Assembly (NCBI GenBank): GCA_017432825.1
Contig: JAFRIJ010000011.1
Span: 172,279-236,278 of the forward strand
Origin: Bacilli bacterium
GTDB taxonomy: Bacteria; Bacillota_I; Bacilli_A; RF39; UBA660
Direction: 5' to 3'
Length of the DNA: 64,000 nucleotides
This document shows positions 2,734 through 57,077 of the stretch, one piece after another (the first letter of the stretch is position 1; each line of letters starts with the position of its first letter). Below the pieces are notes generated by a model, which saw nothing but the letters and a program-made list of their open reading frames with translations, was not told the DNA's origin and did no database searches. The position numbers were made by a program, and so were the translations under genes.

Positions 2734-2789
2734 ATAATAAATATAATTATTAGTCATAAAATTAATTGAATAAGAGAGTGAGGTATGTT

Positions 2790-4259
2790 ATGGAAAAATT
2801 AGATGTTATTAAAAACATTTCCGAAAGATGTGGTGGAGATATATATTTAGGAGTGGTTGGTGCTGTTAGAACTGGTAAAAGTACTTTTATAAAGAATTTT
2901 ATGGAAAATCTTATTATTCCAAATATAGAAGATGAATTTGAAAAGAAAAGAACTTTAGATGAATTACCCCAATCTGCTCAAGGTAAGACAATAATGACTA
3001 CAGAACCTAAATTTGTTCCTGCTACTGCTACTAAGATAAAAATAGACGATTTTGAAGCGTCAATTAGAATGGTTGATTGTGTTGGATATGTTATTGATGC
3101 TGCCAAGGGGTATGAAGATGAAAATGGCCCTAGAATGGTGATGACACCATGGTATTCTGATCCTATTCCGTTTGTAGAGGCTGCTGAAATCGGGACTGAA
3201 AAGGTTATTAAAGAACATTCAACAATTGGTATAGTTGTTACTACTGATGGTTCTATTGGTGATATTCCAAGAAATGAATACGTAGAGGCTGAAGAGCAGG
3301 TCATTAATGATTTAAAGGATATTGGTAAGCCATTTATTGTTATTTTAAATTCCGCACATCCTATGATGCCAGATACTGAAAAGTTAGCAGATAAATTAAG
3401 AGATAGTTATAATGTTCCTGTTATTCCTATTAGTGTTTTAAATATGCAGGAAAGGGATATGTATAATATTTTGAAGGAAGCTTTATATGAATTCCCAATT
3501 GATGAAGTTAAATTTAATATTCCAGAATGGATTGCTATATTAAATAATGATAATGACATAAAAAAAGAATATGTTAAAAGAATTAAGGATAGTGTAATTG
3601 AAATTGATAAATTAAGAGATGTTGATAAAATTACTTTAGGGTTTAAAGATTCTGAATATATAGAAAAATCATATATTTCTAATGTAGATACTGCAAAAGG
3701 AGAGGTAACTATTCAACTTGATGCTCCTGATAATCTTTATAATACTGTTTTAAATAATATAATTGGAACAGATATTTCTTCTAAAGCAAAATTATTATCT
3801 ATGTTTCAGGATTATAATATTGCCAAAAGGGAATATGATCAAATTAAGGGTGCTCTTAATATGGTGAAACAGACTGGATATGGTATTGCTGCTCCAACTT
3901 TAACAGATATGAAATTGGAAACACCTGAAATAATTAAACAAGGCTCTAGATATGGTGTTAAATTAAAAGCAAAAGCACCTTCTATTCATATGATTAAAGT
4001 AGAAGTCGAATCTACATTTGAACCTATTATTGGTAGTGAACTTCAAAGTAAAGAATTAATTAATTATTTAACTAAATCTGATAATGGTAATGATATTTGG
4101 AAGAGTGAAATATTTGGTAGAAGTTTAGATGTAATTGTACAGGAAGGAATACAAGCTAAATTATCTATGATGCCTGATAATATTAGATATAAACTTAGTC
4201 AAACTTTAACTAAAGTTATTAATAAAGGTTCTAATAATATGATTGCTATTGTTATATAA
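2790..4259 (+). CDS. spoIVA: Stage IV sporulation protein A (spore coat morphogenetic ATPase)
   Basis: Sequence MEKLDVIKNISERCGGDIYLGVVGAVRTGKSTFIKNF with a Walker A GAVRTGKST. About 490 aa. RBS GAGAGTGAGG sits 6 nt upstream of the ATG at 2790; the ORF-track start at 2766 is a TTG inside that RBS. Confidence 0.9.
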   Translation: MEKLDVIKNISERCGGDIYLGVVGAVRTGKSTFIKNFMENLIIPNIEDEFEKKRTLDELPQSAQGKTIMTTEPKFVPATATKIKIDDFEASIRMVDCVGYVIDAAKGYEDENGPRMVMTPWYSDPIPFVEAAEIGTEKVIKEHSTIGIVVTTDGSIGDIPRNEYVEAEEQVINDLKDIGKPFIVILNSAHPMMPDTEKLADKLRDSYNVPVIPISVLNMQERDMYNILKEALYEFPIDEVKFNIPEWIAILNNDNDIKKEYVKRIKDSVIEIDKLRDVDKITLGFKDSEYIEKSYISNVDTAKGEVTIQLDAPDNLYNTVLNNIIGTDISSKAKLLSMFQDYNIAKREYDQIKGALNMVKQTGYGIAAPTLTDMKLETPEIIKQGSRYGVKLKAKAPSIHMIKVEVESTFEPIIGSELQSKELINYLTKSDNGNDIWKSEIFGRSLDVIVQEGIQAKLSMMPDNIRYKLSQTLTKVINKGSNNMIAIVI

Positions 4260-4342: not shown

Positions 4343-5066
4343 GGAAAAAATTGTACAGTTTTTTAATAATATGTATTATCTATTAGTACAAGACTAATAA
4401 ATAATACAATTATTAAGAACTTTAATAAACATTATCAGTGTTTATTACAATCTCTTATCATTGTGAAGTTTTTCTTTCTTCATAAACAATTGTTTTACTT
4501 AGTGGAGATAAGAATTATATTTCTATAATTTTTCTTTCCTACTGAAGATAGTAAATATAAATTATTATATAATTATTATAGGATAATATTATAATTAATT
4601 AAATAAATTAAGTAATTATATATTATTGAAATAATTATATATACAAAGGGTAATAATAGATTTTATTATTTTTAGTAATAATTTATTATGAGAAATAGAT
4701 TATTATTTATAAATAAATTATAAGTAATAAGGTATTAAATAATAAATTATTGAATAATAAATTATTGTTACCATATAATATTATTTAGATAATAAATTAA
4801 ATAAATAATATTAAGATTTTATATTTTGTATATCTTCTATCTAAGTGTCTTTATTATATCACTAGCATTATATCATGTCAATACTTTTTTAAAAAAAAAT
4901 GTAAAAATTTGTTTATTTTTTTTCCTTTAGAAAACTGTTAGTTAAATAGAGTAAAAAAAGTGCATATTTTATAATAAATGTATTGATTTTCATTTTTTTT
5001 CGTGATATCTTTATGTTGTAAGCATAGATTATAAGTTGCTTATTTATAGATTATGGAGGTATTAAT

Positions 5067-11623: not shown

Positions 11624-11650
11624 AGAAGTAGAAATTATTTTTCTACTTCT
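11624..11650. terminator. Bidirectional terminator (11-bp perfect stem AGAAGTAGAAA/TTTCTACTTCT) shared by the convergent PBP and parB-like genes
   Basis: Perfect 11-bp inverted repeat with a 5-nt loop that contains the parB-like stop codon; A/T runs flank it. Confidence 0.6.
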
Positions 11651-12942
11651 ATATTTATTTTATAACTTGTGGCTTCTTCATTTTCTGTAACGTTAATTTT
11701 ATATCCTAATAATTCCATATTTGTAGTAATACTCTTTATCATATTAATAATTGGTGTTATATCTTTGCTTTCTGTATTATTTAAATTTGGAATACTATTT
11801 AAATCAAATTCTGGATTTAATGTTTCGTTAGTTGGTATTGGATTTTCTACATTTATATTTGGATTGATTGATGGTACTTCATTAGGTACTTCCATATTAT
11901 TTAGTCCTGACTCTATTGTTGTTTGTTCTTGATAATTATTTTGAAATGATAGCGGATTTGTCATTGATGGTACCTCATTATAATTACTTTGTTCTACTGA
12001 AGTAGATGATGTTTGATCTGTATTATTAAATGTTGGTATGTTTACTTCAGGACTTGGTGTTGGATCTACATTATTAAATGTTGGTATGTTTGCTTCAGGG
12101 CTTGGTATTGGATTTGCATTATTAAATGCTGGAATATTGGTTTCAGGTGTTGGTTCACTAAAATTTGGAATTGGAGCAGGTTCTACATTAATATTTGGTT
12201 GTATATTATTTAAATCTTGATTTGGTATTTGTTGATTAAGTCCATTCACTATGTTATTTGATTCTTCCATTGATGGAAAAAATCTTCCTCCAAATGCTGG
12301 CTCTGTATTCATTCCTTGTCCTAAATTTTGTTCTAATCCATTATTAATATTGTTATCCATACTTTGATTTTCATTCATTTCTATTCTTTCCCTTCTTATT
12401 TCATTTTTATCTAATTCTGATAAATTAATTATGTCATTATTTATCAAGTTATTATTTACTTCTGTTTCATTGTTTAATGAATTTTTTAATATTTGGTTGC
12501 TATTATTATTATGTTTCTTTATTAATTTTAGTTTTGAATAGATTCTGTCAATTGGAATACCAAGTGTTATACTTAATTTTTCAACATTAGTATTAGGGTA
12601 GGAGATAGCTTTATCATATAATGATGCTTCTTCTTTTCCTGTCAATTCTTTTCTCTGAACATTATTTGTTATAATCATATTTATTGCTTGTTCATCAGTT
12701 ATGTTTTCAACTATAACTGGTACTTTATCCATACCTATACTTTTAGCAGCGTTATACCTTCTATTTCCAATTATTATTTCATATTTATCATCTTTTTTTC
12801 TTACAATTAGTGGTTCTAATATTCCTAATTGTTTTATTGAATTTGCTAGATTATCAATGTTATCATTTTGAAATTCTAGATGAGCATGAAATTCACTGGG
12901 TATTAATTCTGCTATAGGTATATACGTAATTGTATTACCCAT
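11635..12942 (-). CDS. Divergent ParB/Noc-like protein: ParB N-terminal domain plus HTH plus a long Pro/Asn-rich repetitive tail
   Basis: ParB N-domain (ILEPLIVRKKDDKYEIIIGNRRYNAAKSIGMDKVPVIVE) carries GNRR in place of GERR. An HTH follows. About 200 aa of low-complexity repeats (NIPAFNNANPIPSPEANIPTFNNVDPTPSPEVNIPTFNN). Position next to rsmG is as in Clostridia. Confidence 0.7.
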   Translation of the reverse strand: MGNTITYIPIAELIPSEFHAHLEFQNDNIDNLANSIKQLGILEPLIVRKKDDKYEIIIGNRRYNAAKSIGMDKVPVIVENITDEQAINMIITNNVQRKELTGKEEASLYDKAISYPNTNVEKLSITLGIPIDRIYSKLKLIKKHNNNSNQILKNSLNNETEVNNNLINNDIINLSELDKNEIRRERIEMNENQSMDNNINNGLEQNLGQGMNTEPAFGGRFFPSMEESNNIVNGLNQQIPNQDLNNIQPNINVEPAPIPNFSEPTPETNIPAFNNANPIPSPEANIPTFNNVDPTPSPEVNIPTFNNTDQTSSTSVEQSNYNEVPSMTNPLSFQNNYQEQTTIESGLNNMEVPNEVPSINPNINVENPIPTNETLNPEFDLNSIPNLNNTESKDITPIINMIKSITTNMELLGYKINVTENEEATSYKINIEVEK

Positions 12943-19910: not shown

Positions 19911-21665
19911 ATGTTTAAGGAAATAACTGCTATAAGTAAAAATTATGCTATGGTTAGGATAGATGGTACTGTTAGTGATGACTTACTTAATATGAATGTT
20001 ATATTTGAAGATGGTACTAAAAAGATTCTAGGTGAAGTTGAAGAAGTTGATAAAGATCAACTAAAAATTAGTTTTTTGGGTGAATTTATTAATGGTAAAT
20101 TTTTAGGTGGTATTATTAGAAAACCTAGTTTAACTTCTAAAATTAGAATGATTAATCAAGAAGAATTAGGTGAGTTAGTTGGAGATAATGATGATAAGAG
20201 TATGGTTTTAGGTTTATCTCCTTTATATAATAACTATCCTATTAAAATAAATATTGATGAGATGTGGAGTAATCATAGTGCTATATTTGGTAATACTGGT
20301 AGTGGTAAAACATACGGTGTATCTAGATATGTACAAAATTTATTTACTATACCTGATAAAATTCCTTTTAACAGTAACATATTTATATTTAATAATACTG
20401 ATGAATATGATAATGCTTTTAAGAGTATAAATAATTATAATATTAATTTTAATTATAAGATGTATTCAATTAATGGAGATGATAATAGTTGTATTAGACT
20501 TCCATTATGGTTATTATCAGTAGATGATTATGCTAATTTATTGGATGTTACTGAATATTCTCAACTTGCTATAATTGAAAAGATGTTGAGTTTAGTATCT
20601 GCTTTTGCTAAGAAAGATGAAGAATCTAAAAGGTATCAAAATCATTTAATTGCTAGTGCTATTACTTCTGTTTTATATACTAATCAAACTCCTGGTAGAA
20701 TTAGAGATCAGATTTTTCAAATATTGGAAAGCTGTCATACTGAAGAATTAAATTTAGATGTTGAAGTCCCTGGGGTTGGATATACTAGACAATTTAGAAA
20801 ATGCTTTGAAATTGATAGTAAAGGTGAATTTGCAGAAAGAGTTTTAATAGCTGAATATATTCAGAAATTTGTTGATAACAATACTATTTGGAATGAAGAT
20901 TATGTTCCTATATATTTTACTTTATCTGATTTGGAAGTTGCTTTAAACTTTACTTTAATATCTGAGGGATTACTTCTTAATGAAAAGTCTTATTCAGAAG
21001 CTATGGCTCTTAAAGTAAGACTTCATACTTTAAATAATAGTAGTTATAAGAAAATATTTGATTATCCTAGATTTGTTAATATGAATGAATTTATTACTGA
21101 TATTATAATGGTTGGTCAAAATAAAAGAGCGCAAATTATTAATTTTGTTTTAGAAGATATTGACGATAGATTTGCTAAGGCTATTGTTAAGGTATACTGT
21201 AGAATTGTATTTAAATTTAGTAAATCTCTTAAAGAAAGAGGAGCAATGCCTATTCATTTAATGTTAGAAGAAGCTCATAGATATGTACAAAGAGATAATG
21301 ATGTTAATATTTTGGGATATAATATGTTTGAACGAATTGCTAAGGAAGGTAGAAAATTTGGCTTAGTATTAGATTTAATTACTCAAAGACCCACTGAACT
21401 ATCTGAAGCTGTTATATCACAGTGTAGTAACTTTTTAATATTTAAGATTACCCATCCTACTGATTTGGAATATATTAGAAAGATGGTACCTAATATTAGT
21501 GCTGATGTTATTGAAAAGCAAAAAGCTCTTCAATCTGGTACTTGTGTTGCTTTTGGTAGAATGATGAAAATTCCTATGATTGTTAAGATGGAATTACCTA
21601 ATCCTGAGCCTAGAAGTTCTAATGCATCTATCTATAATAAGTGGATGATTGATTGGAAGAAATAA
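19911..21665 (+). CDS. HerA/FtsK-superfamily (DUF87-like) P-loop ATPase, 584 aa, located between rpmH and oriC-dnaA
   Basis: Strong RBS GAGGAGGAG. N-terminal beta-rich domain. Walker A GNTGSGKTYG and Walker B IHLMLEEAHRY. C-terminal LITQRPTELSEAVISQCSNFLIFKITHPTDLEYI is typical of HerA-like ATPases. Confidence 0.8.
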   Translation: MFKEITAISKNYAMVRIDGTVSDDLLNMNVIFEDGTKKILGEVEEVDKDQLKISFLGEFINGKFLGGIIRKPSLTSKIRMINQEELGELVGDNDDKSMVLGLSPLYNNYPIKINIDEMWSNHSAIFGNTGSGKTYGVSRYVQNLFTIPDKIPFNSNIFIFNNTDEYDNAFKSINNYNINFNYKMYSINGDDNSCIRLPLWLLSVDDYANLLDVTEYSQLAIIEKMLSLVSAFAKKDEESKRYQNHLIASAITSVLYTNQTPGRIRDQIFQILESCHTEELNLDVEVPGVGYTRQFRKCFEIDSKGEFAERVLIAEYIQKFVDNNTIWNEDYVPIYFTLSDLEVALNFTLISEGLLLNEKSYSEAMALKVRLHTLNNSSYKKIFDYPRFVNMNEFITDIIMVGQNKRAQIINFVLEDIDDRFAKAIVKVYCRIVFKFSKSLKERGAMPIHLMLEEAHRYVQRDNDVNILGYNMFERIAKEGRKFGLVLDLITQRPTELSEAVISQCSNFLIFKITHPTDLEYIRKMVPNISADVIEKQKALQSGTCVAFGRMMKIPMIVKMELPNPEPRSSNASIYNKWMIDWKK

Positions 21666-21996
21666 ACAGTTTATTGTGGAAAAAAATATTTAATAAAGCT
21701 ATGTTTTTTAAGGCATAGCTTTTTTTTTAACTTATTTGCACATATTTCAACATGTTAAAAAATAGTTTTCCACAGGTACTGTTGTTCGTTAACTGTGGAT
21801 ATTTGTGGATAAGTCCTTTTTTCTTTTATTTTATAAGTCTTTTATTGTTGATAATTAAGTGGAAATACATATATTATTTTTGTTTATTGTTATTTATTTT
21901 CCACATTGAAAAAAATTTGTTACTTTCTAATGAAATATATACACAATTATTTTTTTTATGTTAAAATAACTTTATAAATGTTTTGGAGGTGATGAT
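21666..21996. promoter_or_regulatory. oriC part 1: DnaA-box cluster upstream of dnaA (at least 5 boxes) plus the dnaA promoter region
   Basis: TGTGGAAAA at 21678-21686. TTTTCCACA at 21766-21774 and 21897-21905. TGTGGATAT at 21794-21802. Perfect TGTGGATAA at 21804-21812. Confidence 0.7.
21696..21729 (+). terminator. Rho-independent terminator after the HerA-like gene (AAGCTATG/CATAGCTT plus T8)
   Basis: 8-bp stem followed by TTTTTTTTT. Confidence 0.5.
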
Positions 21997-23385
21997 GTGG
22001 ATATTAATTCTTTATGGAATAATTTTTTAGATAAAATTAAAGAGAATATCTCTTCACTTTCATACGAAACATGGTTTAAGGATACTAAACTAGTTAATCT
22101 TAATGATAATACTGCTACTGTTATTGTTCCTATGCCTTTTCATAAAAAGCATTTGGTAGAAAATTATAAAAATATTATTGAAGATACTTTTTGTAATATT
22201 ACTGGAACTAAATTTAATTTTAATTTTTTATTAGAAGAGGAATGGAATTTAGAGAAGGATTCTATTGAAGAAATTATTTCTTCTTCTAGTTTAAGTAATA
22301 ATAATGATTTAGGCGGTGTGGTTAATCAATCTTATGAAGATGCTAATTTAAATCCTGATTATTCTTTTACTAACTTTATTGTAGGAAACTCTAATAGATT
22401 TGCATATACTGCTTCTATGGCTGTAGCAGAAAAACCTGGTAAAGCTTATAATCCATTGTTTTTATATGGGAAAAGTGGTTTAGGTAAAACTCATCTTATG
22501 CATTCTATTGGTAATTATATTATAGAGAATAGTAATTTAAGAGTTTTATATATTTCAAGTGATAAGTTTGTTAATGATTTTATTAATGCTGTTAGAAGTA
22601 ATGATAAAGATAATTTTGATAAAATTGATTCATTTAAAAATAAATATCGTAATATCGATGTGTTAATGATTGATGATATTCAATTTTTAGGTAATGCTAC
22701 TAAGGGTCAAGAGGAATTTTTTCATACTTTTAATGAATTATATAATTGTAATAAACAGATTGTTATTGCATCTGATAGATCTGTTGATGATTTAAAGATG
22801 TTGGAAAATAGGCTTCTTACTAGGTTTAATTGGGGACTTACTGCTAATATTACTCCTCCTGATTTTGAGCTAAGAATGAATATTATAAGAAAAAAGATAG
22901 CCCATCAAGAGTCTGCTAAAGATGTTCCAGATGAGGTTATAGAATATATTGCTAATAACTTTGCTTCTGATGTTCGTAAGCTGGAGGGTGCTATTACTAG
23001 AGTATTTGCTTACGCTCTTATGATGAATAAGGGTATTGTTGATTTAGATACTGCAGTAGATGCTTTAAAAGATCAGTTAACCGACAGAAGTGTTTATAAA
23101 AACGATATAAATAGAATTCAGACTGTTGTTTGTGATTATTTTAAAATTGATTTAGATGACATGAAGGGTAAAAAAAGGAGTCAAAATATTAATTATCCTA
23201 GACAAGTTGCTATATATTTATGTAGAACTATGGCTAATGAGTCATTTCCTAAGATTGGTACACACTTTGGTGGTAGAGATCATTCTACCATTATGAGTTC
23301 ATATAATAAAATAGAAAGAGATTTAAAAAATAATGAACAATTAAAAGTTGTAATTAATGATTTAAAAAAGATGTTATCAACATAG
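21997..23385 (+). CDS. dnaA: Chromosomal replication initiator protein DnaA
   Basis: AAA+ motifs GKSGLGKTHL and IDDIQFLG; C-terminal DNA-binding domain. GTG start 7 nt after a GGAGG RBS. Confidence 0.97.
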   Translation: MDINSLWNNFLDKIKENISSLSYETWFKDTKLVNLNDNTATVIVPMPFHKKHLVENYKNIIEDTFCNITGTKFNFNFLLEEEWNLEKDSIEEIISSSSLSNNNDLGGVVNQSYEDANLNPDYSFTNFIVGNSNRFAYTASMAVAEKPGKAYNPLFLYGKSGLGKTHLMHSIGNYIIENSNLRVLYISSDKFVNDFINAVRSNDKDNFDKIDSFKNKYRNIDVLMIDDIQFLGNATKGQEEFFHTFNELYNCNKQIVIASDRSVDDLKMLENRLLTRFNWGLTANITPPDFELRMNIIRKKIAHQESAKDVPDEVIEYIANNFASDVRKLEGAITRVFAYALMMNKGIVDLDTAVDALKDQLTDRSVYKNDINRIQTVVCDYFKIDLDDMKGKKRSQNINYPRQVAIYLCRTMANESFPKIGTHFGGRDHSTIMSSYNKIERDLKNNEQLKVVINDLKKMLST

Positions 23386-23521
23386 TGTGTTGAAATTGAT
23401 ACTTGTTATCAACAAGCTTGTGGAAAATAAATCCTTATAATATAAGAGTATAATTAACTTTTCCACAGTTTCCACTCTATAATAATAAATAATTAATATT
23501 AATAAAGAAAGAAGGATTATT
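23386..23521. promoter_or_regulatory. oriC part 2: DnaA boxes plus an AT-rich unwinding element between dnaA and dnaN
   Basis: TTATCAACA at 23406-23414. TGTGGAAAA at 23419-23427. TTTTCCACA at 23459-23467. These are followed by the AT tract TATAATAATAAATAATTAATATTAATAAAG. Confidence 0.65.
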
Positions 23522-24637
23522 ATGAAATTTGTTATTAAACAAGAAATATTATTAGAAAGTTTAAATCATACTTCTAGAGCTATTTCACCTAGAAATTTAA
23601 TTCCTATTTTAACAGGTATTAAATTTGATTTAAAAGAAGAAGGATTATTTTTATCTGCAAGTGATACAGATATTTCTATTAGATGTCTTATTCCTAATGA
23701 TAAAATTGAAGAAATAAGTGAGTTGGGTAGTGTTGTTATTGGTGGAAAATATATTGTTGAAATAATTAAAAAACTTCCTAATGTAGATATTACAATAGAG
23801 GTTATAGATGGATATAAGATGATTGTTAGTACTACTAATACTGAATTTAGTTTAAATGGGATTAATCCTAATGAATTTCCTAATTTAGATTTAGATACAA
23901 CTAAAGAACCTATAATTATAAATACTAACTTGTTTAAAAAAGTTATTAATCAGACTTTTTTCGCTACTTCTCAAAATGAGTCTAGGCCTCTTTTAACTGG
24001 TATTAATTTCAGAATTGAAGATAATAAAATGGAAGTTATGGCTACAGATTCATATAGATTATCTAGAAAGATTGTTGAATTAGATAAACATTTTGATAAT
24101 CCTATTAATATTGTTATTCCGGGTAAGAATTTATTAGAATTATCTAAAATAATGGATGATGATAAAGATAATTTAGAATTACATTTATTTGATAATAAAA
24201 TTTTATTTAAATATAAGAATATTTTATTTTTATCAAGATTGTTATCTGGTACATATCCTGCTACTTCTTCTATTATTCCTGATAATTTCAGTGTTTCTGT
24301 TGAATGTAGTTGTATTTCTTTGTTTGAAATGATTGATAGGGCATCTTTACTAACATCTGATAGGGATAAAAATACTATTAAATTACAACTTTCTAAAAAG
24401 GAATTGGTAATTTCATCTAATTCTCCTGAGATTGGTAAGGTTGAGGAAAAGATGAAAGTTAAGAGTAGTGATGAGATATCTATTTCTTTTAGTTCTAAAT
24501 ATATGTTGGATGCTGTTAGAAGTTTTGAGACTGAAAATATTACTTTATATATGAATAGTGATAGTAGTCCTATTATTATTAAATCTTCTAAAGATGATAG
24601 TTTAATTCAATTGGTTTTACCTATTAAAACATATTAA
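23522..24637 (+). CDS. dnaN: DNA polymerase III beta sliding clamp
   Basis: 371 aa, three-domain clamp; conserved position after dnaA. Confidence 0.95.
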   Translation: MKFVIKQEILLESLNHTSRAISPRNLIPILTGIKFDLKEEGLFLSASDTDISIRCLIPNDKIEEISELGSVVIGGKYIVEIIKKLPNVDITIEVIDGYKMIVSTTNTEFSLNGINPNEFPNLDLDTTKEPIIINTNLFKKVINQTFFATSQNESRPLLTGINFRIEDNKMEVMATDSYRLSRKIVELDKHFDNPINIVIPGKNLLELSKIMDDDKDNLELHLFDNKILFKYKNILFLSRLLSGTYPATSSIIPDNFSVSVECSCISLFEMIDRASLLTSDRDKNTIKLQLSKKELVISSNSPEIGKVEEKMKVKSSDEISISFSSKYMLDAVRSFETENITLYMNSDSSPIIIKSSKDDSLIQLVLPIKTY

Positions 24638-24666
24638 AATTAACTAATTTAGTTAATTTTTTTCTT
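24638..24666 (+). terminator. Terminator after dnaN (AATTAACTA/TAGTTAATT plus T-run)
   Basis: 9-bp perfect stem, 3-nt loop, T-rich tail. Confidence 0.45.
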
Positions 24667-24749
24667 TTTATGACATAATTCTACTTTTTTTGACATTTAT
24701 TTATGTTTTAATTATTTTGTCACGTTATTTTATGTGATAAGGGGGATTT

Positions 24750-25226
24750 ATGAAAGAAAAGGTAGATTATGTTATTAATTATGAAACTTTACTTATTATG
24801 CCTTATGAAAATGACAAAAGTAAGGTATATGAATATGATGAAATTTTTATAGTTAATATGAATGTAATGGATATTATTAAGAATAGTTGTTTATTTTTTG
24901 GAAGTTCTTTAGATGGTAGGAAAGAGGGAACTAAGCATTTGATTAGTTGCGAGATGAAGGTACCAATTATTGTTGAGGATAGTGGATTACTTATATTCTT
25001 TCCTACTGGATCTTATAGAAATAAATCTAATATATGGATTTCTTATAATAATATACTTAATTATTCTAAAATAGATAGTAATCATACTATGATATTTTTT
25101 AAAGAAAATAATAATATTTCTATTAATGTTAAGTATAATATTTTAGATAATCAGATTATTAGATGTATTAAATTAGATGCTGTTTTTAATAAAAGAAGAT
25201 TATGTTCAAATTTGAGTGAAAAATAG
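24750..25226 (+). CDS. ComK-family protein (competence transcription factor-like), 158 aa
   Basis: Strong match to recalled B. subtilis ComK. SCLFFGSSLDGRKEGT compares with SCRFFGSSYAGRKAGT. KVPIIVEDSGLLIFFPTGS compares with KPPIMVDPSNQIFLFPTLS. WIS and NQIIRCIKL compare with NQVYRTAWL. RBS is AAGGGGGA. Confidence 0.75.
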   Translation: MKEKVDYVINYETLLIMPYENDKSKVYEYDEIFIVNMNVMDIIKNSCLFFGSSLDGRKEGTKHLISCEMKVPIIVEDSGLLIFFPTGSYRNKSNIWISYNNILNYSKIDSNHTMIFFKENNNISINVKYNILDNQIIRCIKLDAVFNKRRLCSNLSEK

Positions 25227-25247
25227 TGAATATTTTTCACTTTTTTC
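25225..25247 (+). terminator. Weak terminator after the comK-like gene
   Basis: 6-bp stem GTGAAA/TTTCAC followed by T6. Confidence 0.3.
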
Positions 25248-25331
25248 TTTATAAAATAAGGAATTTATGATATAATTATTATACTTAATATGGAATTAGG
25301 TTTGGTGATTTAATGGGTAGTTTATATTTTT

Positions 25332-26462
25332 ATGATTATTAACAATTTAAAGTTAAGAAATTTCAGAAATTATAGTTATTTAGATATTGAATTATCTAAA
25401 AAATTAAATATTTTTATTGGAAATAATGCTCAAGGTAAATCTAATTTATTAGAGTCTATAGTTGTTTTAGCTCTTACTAAATCTTATTTAAATGTTAAGG
25501 ATGAAAATTTAATTAAGGATGGAGAAAATGTATCTATATTAGAAGCGAATGTTAATTCTTTAAATACTAATAAGAAATTATTTGTTAGTTTTTCTAATAG
25601 TGTTAAGAAACTTAAAATTAATGATGTTGAAATTAAAAAGTATATTGATTATGTTTCTAATATTAAATTTGTTTTATTTAGTCCTATGGATATTACTTTA
25701 ATTAAGGATAGTCCTGCTGTTAGAAGGAAGTATTTTAATATAGAGATTAGTCAAATATCTAATAATTATATTAAATTACTTCAAAAATATAATGTTTTAT
25801 TAAAGAAAAGAAATCAATTTCTTAAAAGTATTAATGATATTAGTTTTGATAATGATTATTTTATTAATATTTTAGATGATAATTTTTCAACACTTGCTTT
25901 GGATATTACATTTGAAAGAAAAAAGTTTATTGATGATATAAATAATTATATTGGTAAGATATATTATGAATTAACTGGTGATAATGGATTAATGTTAGTT
26001 TATAATAATTCTATTCCTTTTGATGAAGATAAAGAATTGATGAAAAATAATTTTATTGATAAGTTAAAAGATAATTATATGAGAGATAAGTTATATGGTA
26101 TGACTTTGAATGGTCCTCATAGAGATGATTATTCTATTTATTTAGATGGAAAGGATTTATCTTTATATGGTTCTCAAGGGCAAAATAGATCTGCAATATT
26201 GGCTTTAAAATTGTCTTTATTAGATATTTTTAAAGATATTACAAATGATTATCCAATTTTGCTTTTAGATGACATTTTTAGTGAATTAGATCTTGATAAA
26301 AGGAATAGATTAATTAAATATATTATGAATGATATTCAAACTATTATTACTACTACTGATTTAGATATGATTGATGAGTCTTTAGTAAATAATGCTAAGG
26401 TATTTATTGTTGATAATGGTAATGTTAATGTTTTAGAGAAGGAAGGTAATAAACATGAATAA
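25332..26462 (+). CDS. recF: DNA replication and repair protein RecF
   Basis: Walker [10 protein letters not shown]; SMC-like ends; overlaps the gyrB start by 8 nt. Confidence 0.95.
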
Positions 26463-44363: not shown

Positions 44364-44897
44364 ATGAAAACAACAGGTATTATTAGAAGAATTGATGATT
44401 TGGGAAGAATTGTTATTCCTAAAGAGTTAAGAAGAAATCTACATATAAAGAATGGGGATACTATTGAAATATTTGTTGATATGGATAATATTATTTTAAA
44501 AAAATATTCTCCAATGGAAAGTATAGAAGATGCTGCTATAAAATATGTTGAGAGTTTTAATCAAGTTTTAAAACATAATGTTATTGTTACAGATAAAGAT
44601 AAGGTTATAGCAGTTAGTGGTAGTTTAAAGAAAAATTATTTAGGAAAGAATATTAGTGAATTTACTGATAGAAGTATTGAGAGAAGAGATAGTTTTGTGG
44701 AAAGACAAAAAAAGAATTTTTCTTTTGTAGAGGGAGTTGAAGATTTTGGATATTATTCTTTTAGTTCTATTGTTAATAATGGTGATACATTAGGATCTGT
44801 TATTATTGTTTCTTTAGATAAACCTATTTTAGAATTTGAAGAAAAAATGGCAATTATATTATCTAAGCTTCTTTCTAATAAATTTATTACAGATTAA
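44364..44897 (+). CDS. spoVT: Stage V sporulation protein T (AbrB-family regulator with GAF domain)
   Basis: Sequence MKTTGIIRRIDDLGRIVIPKELRRNLHIKNGDTIEIFVD (AbrB-N swapped hairpin) plus a C-terminal GAF domain; follows mfd as in Bacillus. Confidence 0.85.
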   Translation: MKTTGIIRRIDDLGRIVIPKELRRNLHIKNGDTIEIFVDMDNIILKKYSPMESIEDAAIKYVESFNQVLKHNVIVTDKDKVIAVSGSLKKNYLGKNISEFTDRSIERRDSFVERQKKNFSFVEGVEDFGYYSFSSIVNNGDTLGSVIIVSLDKPILEFEEKMAIILSKLLSNKFITD

Positions 44898-49750: not shown

Positions 49751-50524
49751 GTGATATTATTGATAAATATTGGTGATTATGTTACTAGGAAATCTTATAA
49801 TAATGATATAGTTTTTAAAGTTGTTGATATAAAGGATGATATTTATTATTTGTATGGTGTTTGTGTAAGATTATCTGCTGATAGTCCTTTATCTGATTTA
49901 GTTAAATATAATGATATTATTAATGATGATTTTAATGTAAAAATAGATGAGTATGTTAATTTAGATAGAAATGATTTTTTTTATATTCCTGGTACTGTTT
50001 TACATATTGATGGTGATAAAAATTTTTTAGGTAAGAGTATGAATTTTTATAAGAGTAATAAAATTAAGGCATATGGTGTGTATTCTCCTGAAGATGAATT
50101 AGAGGATAATGTTTATAAATATTTGGAAAAATATAATCCGGATATTCTTGTTATTACTGGTCATGATGCTTTATTTCGTAAGGAAAGAGCAAATGGTAAG
50201 TACAAGAATACTAATAATTTTGTAAAAGCTGTTAGGGTAGCAAGAAAATATGAAAAATCTCAAGATAAATTAATTATTATAGCAGGAGCTTGTCAATCTA
50301 ATTATGAAGAATTAATTAAAGCTGGAGCAAATTTTGCTTCTAGTCCTAAACGTATTAATATACATGCATTAGATCCTGCTGTTATTGCTACTTCATTATC
50401 TTTTTCTGACAAAAATAAAAATATTGATTTAATTAATATTTTAGAAAAAACTAAATATGGTTCTGATGGTATAGGTGGTATTATTACTAATGGAACTATG
50501 TACGTTGGATATCCTAGAAAATAG
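49751..50524 (+). CDS. yabG: Sporulation-specific protease YabG
   Basis: About 257 aa, in the conserved ksgA-yabG-veg position; matches the YabG peptidase (U57) family by recalled pattern (ILVITGHDA...). Start may be GTG at 49751 or TTG at 49760. Confidence 0.7.
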   Translation: MILLINIGDYVTRKSYNNDIVFKVVDIKDDIYYLYGVCVRLSADSPLSDLVKYNDIINDDFNVKIDEYVNLDRNDFFYIPGTVLHIDGDKNFLGKSMNFYKSNKIKAYGVYSPEDELEDNVYKYLEKYNPDILVITGHDALFRKERANGKYKNTNNFVKAVRVARKYEKSQDKLIIIAGACQSNYEELIKAGANFASSPKRINIHALDPAVIATSLSFSDKNKNIDLINILEKTKYGSDGIGGIITNGTMYVGYPRK

Positions 50525-51160: not shown

Positions 51161-51454
51161 ATGGACAAGGTAAAGGAATTAGAAAGTAATTTTAATCATG
51201 GTATTTCTATAGCAGAAAGGAAAAATATTATTGTTACTGGTGTAAAGAAGATAGAGAGTTTTGATAGTGATGAATTTTTAATGGATACTACGTTAGGTTA
51301 TTTATCTATTAAGGGTAGTGAATTAGAAATAGTTAAATTAGATACGTATCAAGGAAATGTATCTATAAAAGGTCTAGTTGATAGTGTAAATTATTTGGAT
51401 GACTTTTCTAAGAAAAATAAGGATAATTCTTTTATTGGTAAATTATTTAAATAA
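51161..51454 (+). CDS. yabP: Sporulation protein YabP
   Basis: 97 aa; YabP-like beta-rich pattern (IVTGVKKIESFDSDEFLMDTTLGYLSIKGSELEIVKLD); conserved yabP-yabQ-divIC order. Confidence 0.8.
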   Translation: MDKVKELESNFNHGISIAERKNIIVTGVKKIESFDSDEFLMDTTLGYLSIKGSELEIVKLDTYQGNVSIKGLVDSVNYLDDFSKKNKDNSFIGKLFK

Positions 51455-51726
51455 TGATATTAAAGATACAAATTTATTCTTTTATAGTTTCTTTTATTTA
51501 TGGAATTATTTTTTATTTACTATTAGAAATTAATTCTAAATTTATATATTCTTCTTATTTGTTTATTAAAATAATATATTCTTTTCTTTTTATTATTTTT
51601 AATTGTTTGTTTTATTTTATTATTTTAATGTATATTAATAATGGGTATATACATATTTATTTTTTTATTTGTATATTATTAGGATATTTATTGTGTAAAG
51701 TTGTATATAAACGAATTGTAAAATAA
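51454..51726 (+). CDS. yabQ: Spore cortex biosynthesis membrane protein YabQ
   Basis: 90 aa polytopic membrane protein overlapping the yabP stop; assignment by position. Confidence 0.5.
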   Translation: MILKIQIYSFIVSFIYGIIFYLLLEINSKFIYSSYLFIKIIYSFLFIIFNCLFYFIILMYINNGYIHIYFFICILLGYLLCKVVYKRIVK

Positions 51727-55274: not shown

Positions 55275-55408
55275 AGTAATGCCTCCTTTTTGGATAATAT
55301 TATAACAAAATATTTATTTAATAGCAAAACAAATATTTATTTCTTTTTACTTTATTTTTCCTTTAAAATTTGATACAATGTATCTTGTAGGAGATAAAGG
55401 TGAGTTTG

Positions 55409-56224
55409 ATGGGAAAAATAATTGCAATAGTAAACCAAAAAGGTGGAGTAGGTAAAACTACCACTAGTATTAATTTAGCAGCATCTTTGGGTATTTTAAA
55501 GAAGAAAGTATTACTAGTTGATTTAGATCCTCAAGGAAATGCTACTACAGGTATTGGTATTGATAAGGGAAGTTTAAATAGTAGTGTTTATGAAGTTATG
55601 ATTATGAAAACTAGTATTGAAGATGCAATTATTAAGACCAAAAGTAAAAATGTTAGTATTTTACCAGCTTATTTAAATTTAGCTGGTGTGGATATGGAAT
55701 TAATTGAATTAGAAAAGCAATATCATGCTGAAGGTAAGAGATTAAATAGGGTTTTAAGACTTAAAGAGGAGTTATCTAAGGTAAAAGATAGGTATGATTT
55801 TATTTTAATTGATTGTCCTCCTTCTTTGGGAATTTTAACTACAAATGCATTAGGTGCTAGTGATAGTGTACTTATACCTGTTCAATGTGAATATTTTGCA
55901 TTAGAGGGAATAATGCAATTAATTAATACAATTATGTTGGCTCAAAAGAAAGTTAATCCTAATTTGGAAATTGAAGGAGTTTTACTTACTATGCTTACTA
56001 CTAATACAAATTTGGGTTTAGAAGTTGTTGAAAGTATAAAAGGATTTTTTAAAGAAAGAGTTTATGATACTATAATTCCTAGACTTATTAGATTGGCGGA
56101 GGCACCATCTCATGGTAAACCTATATTAGAGTATGAACCTAGAAGTAGAGGGACTTTGGCATATTTAAATTTAGCTAAGGAGGTAATAGAAAAGAATGGA
56201 ACAAAAAAAGAAAGCATTGGGTAA
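55409..56224 (+). CDS. soj: ParA-family chromosome partitioning ATPase Soj
   Basis: Sequence [19 protein letters not shown] with the deviant Walker A; 272 aa. RBS GGAG precedes it. Confidence 0.9.
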
Positions 56225-57077
56225 GGGGTTAGAACAATTATTTAGTAGTGAGGTTTTGGATTTTGATTCTTTTGAAGATAGAATAATGGAGAATGCTAAG
56301 GAATCTGATATTTTTGAAATTCCTGTTAATGAAGTTAGGCCTAATCCTTTTCAGCCTAGAAAAAAATTTGATAATGAGTCTTTAGAAGAATTAGCTACTT
56401 CAATTAAAAATTATGGTGTGTTTCAACCAATAATTGTTAAGAAAAGTATTAAAGGATATGATTTGGTAGCGGGAGAAAGAAGACTAAGGGCATCTAAAAT
56501 GGCTGGATTATCAAATATTCCTGCTATAATTAAAGATTTTAACGATGAAGAAATGAGAGAAATTGCATTGTTAGAAAATCTTCAAAGAGAGGATTTGTCT
56601 GCAGTTGAGTTAGCGTGGGCTTATAAGGGTATTATTGATAGTTTGCATATCACGCAAGATGACCTTGCTTCTAGATTGGGAAAAAGCAGGAGTAGCGTTA
56701 CAAATATTTTAGGTTTATTAAGACTTCCTTCAGAAGTTCAGAATATGGTTATTGATAATAAAATTTCTATGGGACATGCTAGAGTTTTGTCTAAAATAGA
56801 AGATGTTAATAAAATAAAAGAATTATCTAAGAAGGTTATTAATGATAATTTGAGTGTTAGGGATTTAGAGGATTTGTCTAATTCTTCAGAAATAAAGAAA
56901 AAAGTTCCTATTAAAAGAACTGTTAAAAATAATTCTGATTATTTATATATTGAGAATAGAATGAAAGAGATATTAGGAACAAAAGTTAAGATTGATAGTA
57001 AGAAGATAGAAATTCATTATAGTTCTTCTGACGATTTAACTAGAATCTTAGATATGTTAAATATAAAAGTTGATTAA
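56196..57077 (+). CDS. spo0J: ParB-family chromosome partitioning protein Spo0J
   Basis: ParB box with canonical [15 protein letters not shown] (GERRxRA) and an HTH; translationally coupled to soj with a 29-nt overlap. Confidence 0.9.

Follow-up and report, generated by a model that had tools for sequence, protein, structure and literature searches.

ComK is the textbook bistable master regulator, understood almost only in Bacillus subtilis. In the stretch of Bacilli DNA analysed here (64,000 nucleotides of contig JAFRIJ010000011.1; called the window throughout, at its full length), the slot between dnaN and recF is occupied by a gene for a 158-residue protein that we confirm as a member of the ComK family. 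The best overall explanation of the evidence, which on balance we favour, is that it encodes a short ComK-family transcription factor under the direct control of phosphorylated Spo0A (Spo0A~P), expressed from a transcription unit of its own and fixed near the replication origin, oriC. The gene and its two neighbours are as follows.

23522–24637 (+), dnaN, encoding the DNA polymerase III beta clamp, the upstream neighbour (from the open reading frame, or ORF, list)
24750–25226 (+), the comK-like gene, encoding a 158-residue short-form ComK-family protein, with an ATG start and a TAG stop
25332–26462 (+), recF, the downstream neighbour (from the ORF list; Pfam SMC_N in locus L001)

An earlier, sequence-only reading of the window had reported a ComK-family gene between dnaN and recF, where a small protein with a YaaA-type S4 domain would be expected. 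Both flanking genes are where that reading placed them, and the two peptides that it quoted, SCLFFGSSLDGRKEGT and IIVEDSGLLIFFPTGS, are present in the translation of 24750–25226. The Pfam model of the family, PF06338, matches the protein at 137.1 bits (E 5.3e-40) over profile positions 3–150 of 152, far above the gathering cut-off of 22.3, and BLASTP against B. subtilis ComK (COMK_BACSU, 192 residues, its sequence confirmed by exact look-up) gives 33% identity over ComK residues 1–157 (E 1e-28), so the proposed similarity is borne out by a curated profile as well as by direct comparison. No other Pfam family matches at E≤1, S4 included, and the protein thus has no YaaA-type S4 domain. PF06338 is likewise carried by all 175 homologues from the family search. 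NCBIfam gave no match for the protein, and a PDB sequence search returned cohesin matches only, at E 1.5, which is chance level. The L001 gene identical to the dnaN of the window carries Pfam DNA_pol3_beta domains 1, 2 and 3, and the interval between dnaN and recF (24638–25331) holds no further ORF of at least 40 residues on either strand. The comK-like gene shows no sign of recent acquisition, since its guanine-plus-cytosine (GC) content of ~22% is that of the adjacent genes; a horizontally transferred gene or a relic was considered and rejected on this ground, and because the ORF is intact and conserved at all loci.

The family is large, an exhaustive profile search giving 1878 representatives at 50% clustering, and its lengths fall into two classes, a short one of ~145–160 residues and a long one of ~185–215, which lie largely apart on a neighbour-joining tree. 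The window protein falls within a pure short-form clade of 78. It ends ~9 residues past the aligned ComK core, and the C-terminal ~30 residues of B. subtilis ComK are absent from it. According to PMC8138137, which cites Prepiak and Dubnau 2007, this C-terminal region holds the MecA/ClpCP degron, FMLYPK... Among the representatives compared, the corresponding motif of two hydrophobic residues followed by LYP is found in one of 29 long forms and in none of 113 short ones, being confined to the B. subtilis cluster, and on this sequence comparison we therefore take the degron to characterise the B. subtilis group without being required for family membership, so that its absence does not exclude the window protein. 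A confident AlphaFold2 model built with 26 homologues (predicted local distance difference test, pLDDT, 93.5; predicted template modelling score, pTM, 0.87) combines a beta-rich core with a long helix at the C-terminus. The closest folds in the PDB are LytTR DNA-binding domains (B. cereus 3d6w, AgrA and ComE), though these matches are weak (E 0.025–0.3, target-normalised TM-score ~0.5); the PDB set searched holds no solved ComK structure. A resemblance of ComK to AgrA-LytTR and to SwrD is also described in a 2026 preprint (PMC13232269). The family match, the homology and the predicted fold together fit a putative DNA-binding transcription factor.

The sequence-only reading had suggested looking at relatives for the content of the same slot, and the comK homologues found in relatives lie in this slot, with one exception (L094, below), at every locus with enough flanking sequence. 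Seven genome loci, from uncultured Bacilli metagenome-assembled genomes (MAGs), an Erysipelotrichaceae MAG and Clostridium sp. CAG:914, carry the order DUF87-dnaA-dnaN-comK-recF-gyrB-gyrA, and over these seven the identity of ComK falls from 71% to 39% and that of DnaN from 85% to 66%. Three farther homologues (42–50% identity) keep the same order of dnaN, comK and recF, one of them in 308 assembly-collection blocks (many contigs). A metagenome scan added 80 loci, and ~76 non-redundant ones, from gut and rumen Bacilli, were used for the counts given below. Wherever the flank is sufficient, dnaN lies directly 5′ and recF 3′, down to DnaN identities of 41–55%; two loci (L070 and L091) show no detectable recF match in ~1.2 kb. 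The ORF itself is intact, with its invariant residues, in the ~76 non-redundant loci, which speaks for a protein of conserved function. The sole comK homologue of the metagenome set outside the slot (L094, 3408–4076) encodes a canonical long ComK (PF06338, 180 bits) among Bacillus-like neighbours, namely an M48 peptidase, a DedA/VTT protein, a signal peptidase and a short-chain dehydrogenase (SDR), and upstream it lacks the triple 0A boxes described below (12/21). On this comparison of gene orders the dnaN-comK-recF position is a lineage trait. The claim that the position is unusual thus holds against model organisms, but not among these relatives, a deep clade of uncultured Bacilli from gut and rumen in which the position is fixed. 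A literature search on comK together with dnaN or recF, or with Erysipelotrichia, found nothing relevant.

The signals around the gene were compared in an alignment of the dnaN-comK spacer from nine diverged loci (A1), supplemented by inspection of 78 distinct upstream sequences, and in an alignment of the recF promoter region, also from nine diverged loci (A2). Terminators that are AT-rich were missed by a terminator scan that requires GC-rich stems, and were folded directly instead. In the window we find the following elements.

24636–24669 (+), dnaN terminator, an AT-rich hairpin AAAATTAACTAATTTAGTTAATTTT (24636–24660) followed by a T-run, folding free energy −6.6 kcal/mol
24704–24712 (+), extended −10 element, TG-T-TTTAAT, with the A1 columns ATGnTnTAnT invariant
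24715–24742 (+), 5′-leader stem-loop, core GTCAC/GTGAT, ending at the Shine-Dalgarno sequence, −8.0 to −9.5 kcal/mol, z ~−5 against shuffles
24739–24746 (+), Shine-Dalgarno sequence AAGGGGGA, its GGGGG core ending 4 nt 5′ of the ATG, read from the sequence
25214–25249 (+), terminator of the comK-like gene, a hairpin GAGTGAAAAATA-GTGAA-TATTTTTCACTT (25214–25242) around the TAG stop, then a T-run, −11.1 to −11.6 kcal/mol
25268–25276 (+), recF promoter, extended −10 element TG-A-TATAAT, 10/12 matches with the TG in a promoter scan

Each relative in A1 has a hairpin and T-run 3′ of dnaN, the sequence of the stem being lineage-specific, and 57 of the 76 non-redundant loci have a counterpart of the hairpin and T-run that end the comK-like gene. 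The −10 takes the form TGnT(T/A)TA(A/G)T across loci, 11 bp past the boxes described below, and in L014 and L017 it appears as TG-C-TATAGT in the same place; the clade consensus of this promoter contains no −35 hexamer at a spacing of 16–18 bp. The recF element TGnTATAAT is invariant in nine of nine loci of A2. With terminator hairpins on both sides, and conserved promoters for both the comK-like gene and recF, the comK-like gene appears to be its own transcription unit, insulated within the replication cluster. The view that it forms part of the replication operon therefore survives in the physical sense only, as the gene lies within the dnaA-dnaN-recF-gyrBA cluster; operon membership is not supported, given the flanking terminator hairpins, the conserved promoter of the gene and the separate extended −10 of recF.

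The leader of the predicted transcript folds into a hairpin in most lineages. This hairpin has z<−1.5 in 35 of 51 related leaders (mean −2.4), and the stems differ by lineage (GTCAC/GTGAT, AACACA/TGTGTT, GTACAG/CTGTAC and TGAAAAC/GTTTTCA) with the pairing kept; this variation between stems argues for an RNA structure. MAFFT and RNAalifold applied to the leaders gave no consensus structure, the hairpins being out of register, hence the use of z-scores from the folding of each sequence. A GGGGG or GGAGG Shine-Dalgarno sequence is kept in nearly all loci, and the leader may act as a 5′-terminal stabiliser of the mRNA before this strong ribosome-binding signal. Ten loci with near-perfect boxes have a short leader without the hairpin (L041, L042, L044, L050, L051, L053, L055, L064, L067 and L084). 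No Rfam family matches the leader in the window or, at the gathering score, in 18 related loci. A permissive Rfam scan of 24600–25400 placed cow-rumen-4 (RF02948) over the comK terminator and recF promoter, at 25216–25270 (+), with 26.5 bits against a gathering score of 48.5 (E 0.05); we discarded this as probably a chance match, with no Rfam match at the gathering score in the 18 relatives.

Between the dnaN terminator and the −10 lie three short direct repeats that resemble the Spo0A (0A) box.

24669–24675 (+), 0A-like box 1, TATGACA (consensus TTCGACA), which aligns with box 1 of the clade
24679–24685 (+), 0A-like box 2, TTCTACT, the weakest of the three in the window species, on the 10-bp period
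24689–24695 (+), 0A-like box 3, TTTGACA, which ends 11 bp 5′ of the −10 hexamer and aligns with the clade consensus

These three boxes are the sole match in the window to YGACA-N5-YKAC-N6-YGACA, a pattern with no matches in 100 shuffles. In the clade consensus the same place holds three direct TTCGACA repeats with 3-bp spacers and an exact 10-bp period, each repeat being the Spo0A box, TGTCGAA, in reverse complement. A triple-box score of at least 17/21 is reached by 50 of the 76 non-redundant upstream regions, against one of 5427 background intervals of 150 nt from the same loci, which attains 17 and no more; shuffled upstream regions never score above 15. When perfect TTCGACA/TGTCGAA 7-mers are counted over 449 kb, 76 of the 100 lie within 150 nt 5′ of the comK-like gene and in the same orientation. 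The promoter consensus is TTTTTCGACAtAATTCGACAAaTTTCGACA followed by TGnTTTAAT, and a position frequency matrix built on 56 loci gives ttTTTTTCGACAtAATTCGACAAaTTTCGACA-N9-TGnTTTAAt, where position 3 of the boxes is C in 64–75% and T in 23–25%, and where conservation is highest in box 3 (G 96%, A 96%, C 96%, A 98%). Near-perfect Spo0A boxes are, as far as sequence can identify them, the only conserved upstream regulatory sites found.

The arrangement agrees with what has been described for Spo0A elsewhere. The core box TGTCGAA is recognised by the Spo0A proteins of both B. subtilis and Clostridioides difficile (PMC3485338), and functional tandem sites consist of boxes 3 bp apart, with up to four in succession, as at the phi29 origins (PMC2731898). 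The B. subtilis comK promoter, PcomK, carries five Spo0A~P sites through which it is activated at low and repressed at high levels (PMC3297582), a direct precedent for a link from Spo0A to ComK. Elsewhere in the loci we find 23 perfect boxes, of which eight are upstream of dnaA (L012:2952, L044:415, L058:631, L059:475, L076:610, L082:424, L095:511 and L100:513), some of these beside DnaA-box-like sequences, and one is upstream of dnaN (L013:4619). By analogy with the binding of Spo0A at the B. subtilis origin (PMC2731898), these copies in the oriC region support the view that the 7-mer is probably a real Spo0A site in these organisms.

For the targets of the protein we looked for K-boxes, the AAAA-N5-TTTT dyads. 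The window has no perfect K-boxes at a spacing of N8 or N18, and with two mismatches at N8 it has 4 against 3.9 expected, which gives no lead. To our knowledge every characterised ComK-family member (those of B. subtilis, S. aureus and B. cereus) acts on late competence genes, and by this analogy late competence and recombination genes are most likely the targets here.

In the mechanism that we favour, Spo0A~P would bind the triple boxes, located where a −35 element would be, and would in this way tie expression of the comK-like gene to the signal for stationary phase and the initiation of sporulation. Activation, in the manner of spoIIG or the pho boxes, would be the more likely result, with repression possible at high Spo0A~P; we prefer it since most loci have TTTAAT as their −10 and the promoter lacks a −35. 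In classical activated promoters, such as spoIIG and those with pho boxes, repeats bound by an activator take the place of the −35 and stop ~10 bp before the −10. The ComK-like protein, made without the B. subtilis C-terminal tail and hence without its MecA/ClpCP degron, would then bind A/T-rich sites and activate DNA uptake and recombination as a programme of the ComK type.

Several observations weigh against this explanation. The missing C-terminal ~30 residues belong to a region that is reportedly needed (Susanna et al. 2006) for both transcription activation and tetramerisation by B. subtilis ComK, so that the short form may act in another way. No K-box lies at the promoter of the comK-like gene and none are enriched in the window, so positive autoregulation in the style of B. 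subtilis is not evident, and neither spo0A nor comG, comE, comF or dprA is visible within the 64-kb window. The boxes of the window are the most degenerate of their subclade, at 16/21 (TATGACA, TTCTACT and TTTGACA), and each is altered at one of the bases G2, C4 and G5 of TGTCGAA, which Spo0A contacts specifically (PMC3485338). When the window is taken alone, a two-box pattern is at chance level and TTCGACA occurs once; the 0A-box signal comes from cross-species conservation only. Box 3 falls within the spacer and, counted from the presumed start, occupies about −31 to −25, where binding could repress. Finally, a subgroup of loci without triple boxes (L046, L058, L063, L068 and L081, with DnaN 51–54% identical) has instead a DnaA box, TGTGGATAA, which is perfect and lies over the −10, at −29 to −37 relative to the start codon. 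In locus L029 the leader hairpin consists of two inverted perfect DnaA boxes, and these sequences suggest that DnaA may control the comK-like gene in some lineages.

The position of box 3 bears on the sign of regulation, as the same gene and boxes could describe a strong growth-phase promoter of the extended −10 type that Spo0A~P shuts, by binding from −50 to −25, at the onset of sporulation, making the ComK programme and sporulation mutually exclusive. A −10 that is mostly TTTAAT, without the key A at position 2, would probably be weak unaided, and the layout of the boxes is, as noted, that of an activated promoter; for these reasons we think repression unlikely, while regarding it as a serious rival to activation. 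Extended −10 promoters need no −35, so constitutive expression is conceivable, and box 3 sits in the spacer only 11 bp from the −10. Moreover, Spo0A represses the early promoters of phi29 and Nf through tandem boxes over the core promoter (PMC2731898), and at PcomK of B. subtilis the repressing site R1 overlaps the −35 (PMC3297582). A more radical alternative is that the repeats are not Spo0A sites at all, and are read by another regulator of repeats phased at 10 bp (of the OmpR/PhoB type, or the ComK-like protein itself, whose fold weakly resembles the LytTR domains that bind direct repeats), or represent degenerate −35 or UP-like elements. Two of the boxes in the window can indeed be read as TTGACA-like −35 hexamers (the promoter scan gives TTGACA-17-TATTTT), and the 64-kb view contains no spo0A gene. 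This we consider quite improbable: the clade consensus agrees with the 0A core in seven of seven positions, keeps its CpG in genomes of ~25% GC and has the documented 3-bp spacing (PMC3485338, PMC2731898), and known ComK sites are A4-N5-T4 rather than CGACA (PMC7470987). A plain −35 would not be expected as a conserved TCGACA, nor as three copies wrongly spaced from the −10, and the oriC region also has perfect 7-mers 5′ of dnaA, some of them beside DnaA-box-like sequences.

A further question is whether the protein still governs DNA uptake, which the sequence-only reading had called into doubt, or instead regulates genes linked to replication, repair or sporulation (its neighbours, for example), or acts as a tail-less anti-repressor or repressor. 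The linkage to dnaN and recF, fixed over deep divergence, would suit such a role, as would the absent C-terminal extension and a window with neither com genes nor enriched K-boxes. We nevertheless find a loss of the competence role rather unlikely, in view of the consistent action of characterised family members on late competence genes, as far as we know it, and of the recF promoter, which is conserved, looks constitutive and shares no motif with that of the comK-like gene; in addition, the absence of com genes from 64 kb is uninformative on the remaining genome. The competence role under Spo0A~P stays the explanation that we prefer. A tentative possibility goes further, to a three-input switch in this deep clade, in which a degron-less ComK anchored at oriC, with its dosage rising under replication stress, would be gated directly by three Spo0A boxes, as a readout of starvation and of the sporulation phosphorelay, or, in some lineages that lack those boxes, by a DnaA box over the −10, as a readout of the status of the replication initiator. 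The gene-dosage part is a hypothesis drawn from Streptococcus pneumoniae, where replication stress raises the dosage of origin-proximal competence genes (PMC5034851).

Comparison with better known systems helps to place the gene. The ComK proteins of B. subtilis and the window share PF06338 and the core motifs SC-FFGSS--GR--GT, K-P--V and FP, though the former has 192 residues and the latter ends just past the core with 158. B. subtilis comK lies at a large distance from the origin, among unrelated genes (compare locus L094). The promoter of the window gene is compact, with a dnaN-comK gap of ~110 nt and three tandem 0A boxes that are near-consensus in the clade, and unlike that of B. subtilis it has no K-boxes and no space for an upstream region of the Rok/CodY/AbrB type; at the B. 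subtilis promoter several 0A boxes are bound directly by Spo0A~P (PMC3297582), as is proposed here. The repeats also share with established Spo0A promoters (spoIIG and abrB of B. subtilis; A2c and the origins of phi29) the TGTCGAA/TTCGACA core, 3-bp spacers, 10-bp period and overlap with the −35 region (PMC2731898, PMC3485338), the difference being that the predicted boxes here precede a ComK-family gene in uncultured Bacilli. The S4-domain protein YaaA (RlbA) of B. subtilis and many Bacillota is likewise encoded by a small gene in the dnaN-recF slot, but has no sequence or domain relationship to the ComK-like protein. In S. pneumoniae comCDE and comAB, too, an early competence regulator adjoins oriC, but the regulator families are unrelated, ComE being a LytTR response regulator and ComX a sigma factor.

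The analysis brings together many and varied short ComK proteins of spore formers, all uncultured, from gut and rumen, with ~76 non-redundant loci and a fixed position at the origin; what is new is the promoter with its triple 0A boxes. A short, origin-anchored ComK behind triple 0A boxes suggests a minimal version of the link between Spo0A and ComK. If the three-input switch is real, natural transformation, or persistence resembling the K-state, would be common among Erysipelotrichales-like bacteria of the gut and tied there to sporulation, although no competence has ever been described in them. The minimal link, if confirmed, would predict when these bacteria enter competence or the K-state in the gut. 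Induction of ComK would then offer a handle for the genetics of uncultured or hard-to-transform Erysipelotrichales-like species, and the clade would provide a natural test, beyond the streptococci, of the role of chromosomal position in the regulation of competence.

The window as a whole covers the origin region of an endospore former whose DNA is very AT-rich, with the gene order rnpA/rpmH, a DUF87 (HerA-like) ATPase gene, DnaA boxes, dnaA, DnaA boxes, dnaN, the comK-like gene, recF, gyrB and gyrA. The origin elements and the spore-formation markers are listed here.

2766–4259, SpoIVA, spore-formation marker
21675–21905 (no strand), DnaA-box cluster upstream of dnaA (part 1 of oriC), matches to TTATCCACA with at most one mismatch
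23374–23467 (no strand), second DnaA-box cluster, in the gap between dnaA and dnaN, matches to TTATCCACA with at most one mismatch
44364–44897, SpoVT, spore-formation marker
49751–50524, YabG, spore-formation marker
51161–51726, YabP/YabQ, spore-formation marker

The comK-like gene is ~1.3 kb from oriC, measured from the second DnaA-box cluster. The markers agree with the sequence-only reading, which had called the organism a spore former and had seen no other competence genes in the window; nor did we see any among ORFs of at least 90 residues, by Pfam scans and synteny, a survey in which a few ORFs were unscanned or identified by synteny and shorter, pilin-sized ones were unscanned. On the 3′ side recF and gyrB overlap by 8 nt, and the window has no remB/yaaB by recF. 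In locus L016 (6689–8614), a metagenome contig, gyrB is split between two called ORFs (365 and 273 residues), probably through a frameshift or an assembly error.

The DUF87 (HerA/FtsK-like) ATPase gene, at 19911–21665 (+), encodes 584 residues; it is inserted 5′ of dnaA, with rpmH/rnpA on its other side, and immediately precedes the DnaA boxes at 21675–21905. It is also present in L007–L013 and L019, with 67–92% identity in closer relatives, and is absent from the distant comK-bearing lineages L014–L018, in which rpmH adjoins dnaA. At gathering scores Rfam finds two RNAs in the whole window, the signal recognition particle (SRP) RNA and the PGK RNA (RF03040), the latter at 4425–4519 (−) in the gap between spoIVA and the HU gene with 75.5 bits (gathering score 50.8). 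Beside rsmG, in a Noc-like position, a gene at 11635–12942 (−) encodes a 435-residue protein with a ParB_N domain only, and a canonical ParA/ParB (Soj/Spo0J) pair lies ~30 kb away across oriC, at 55400–57077 (+).

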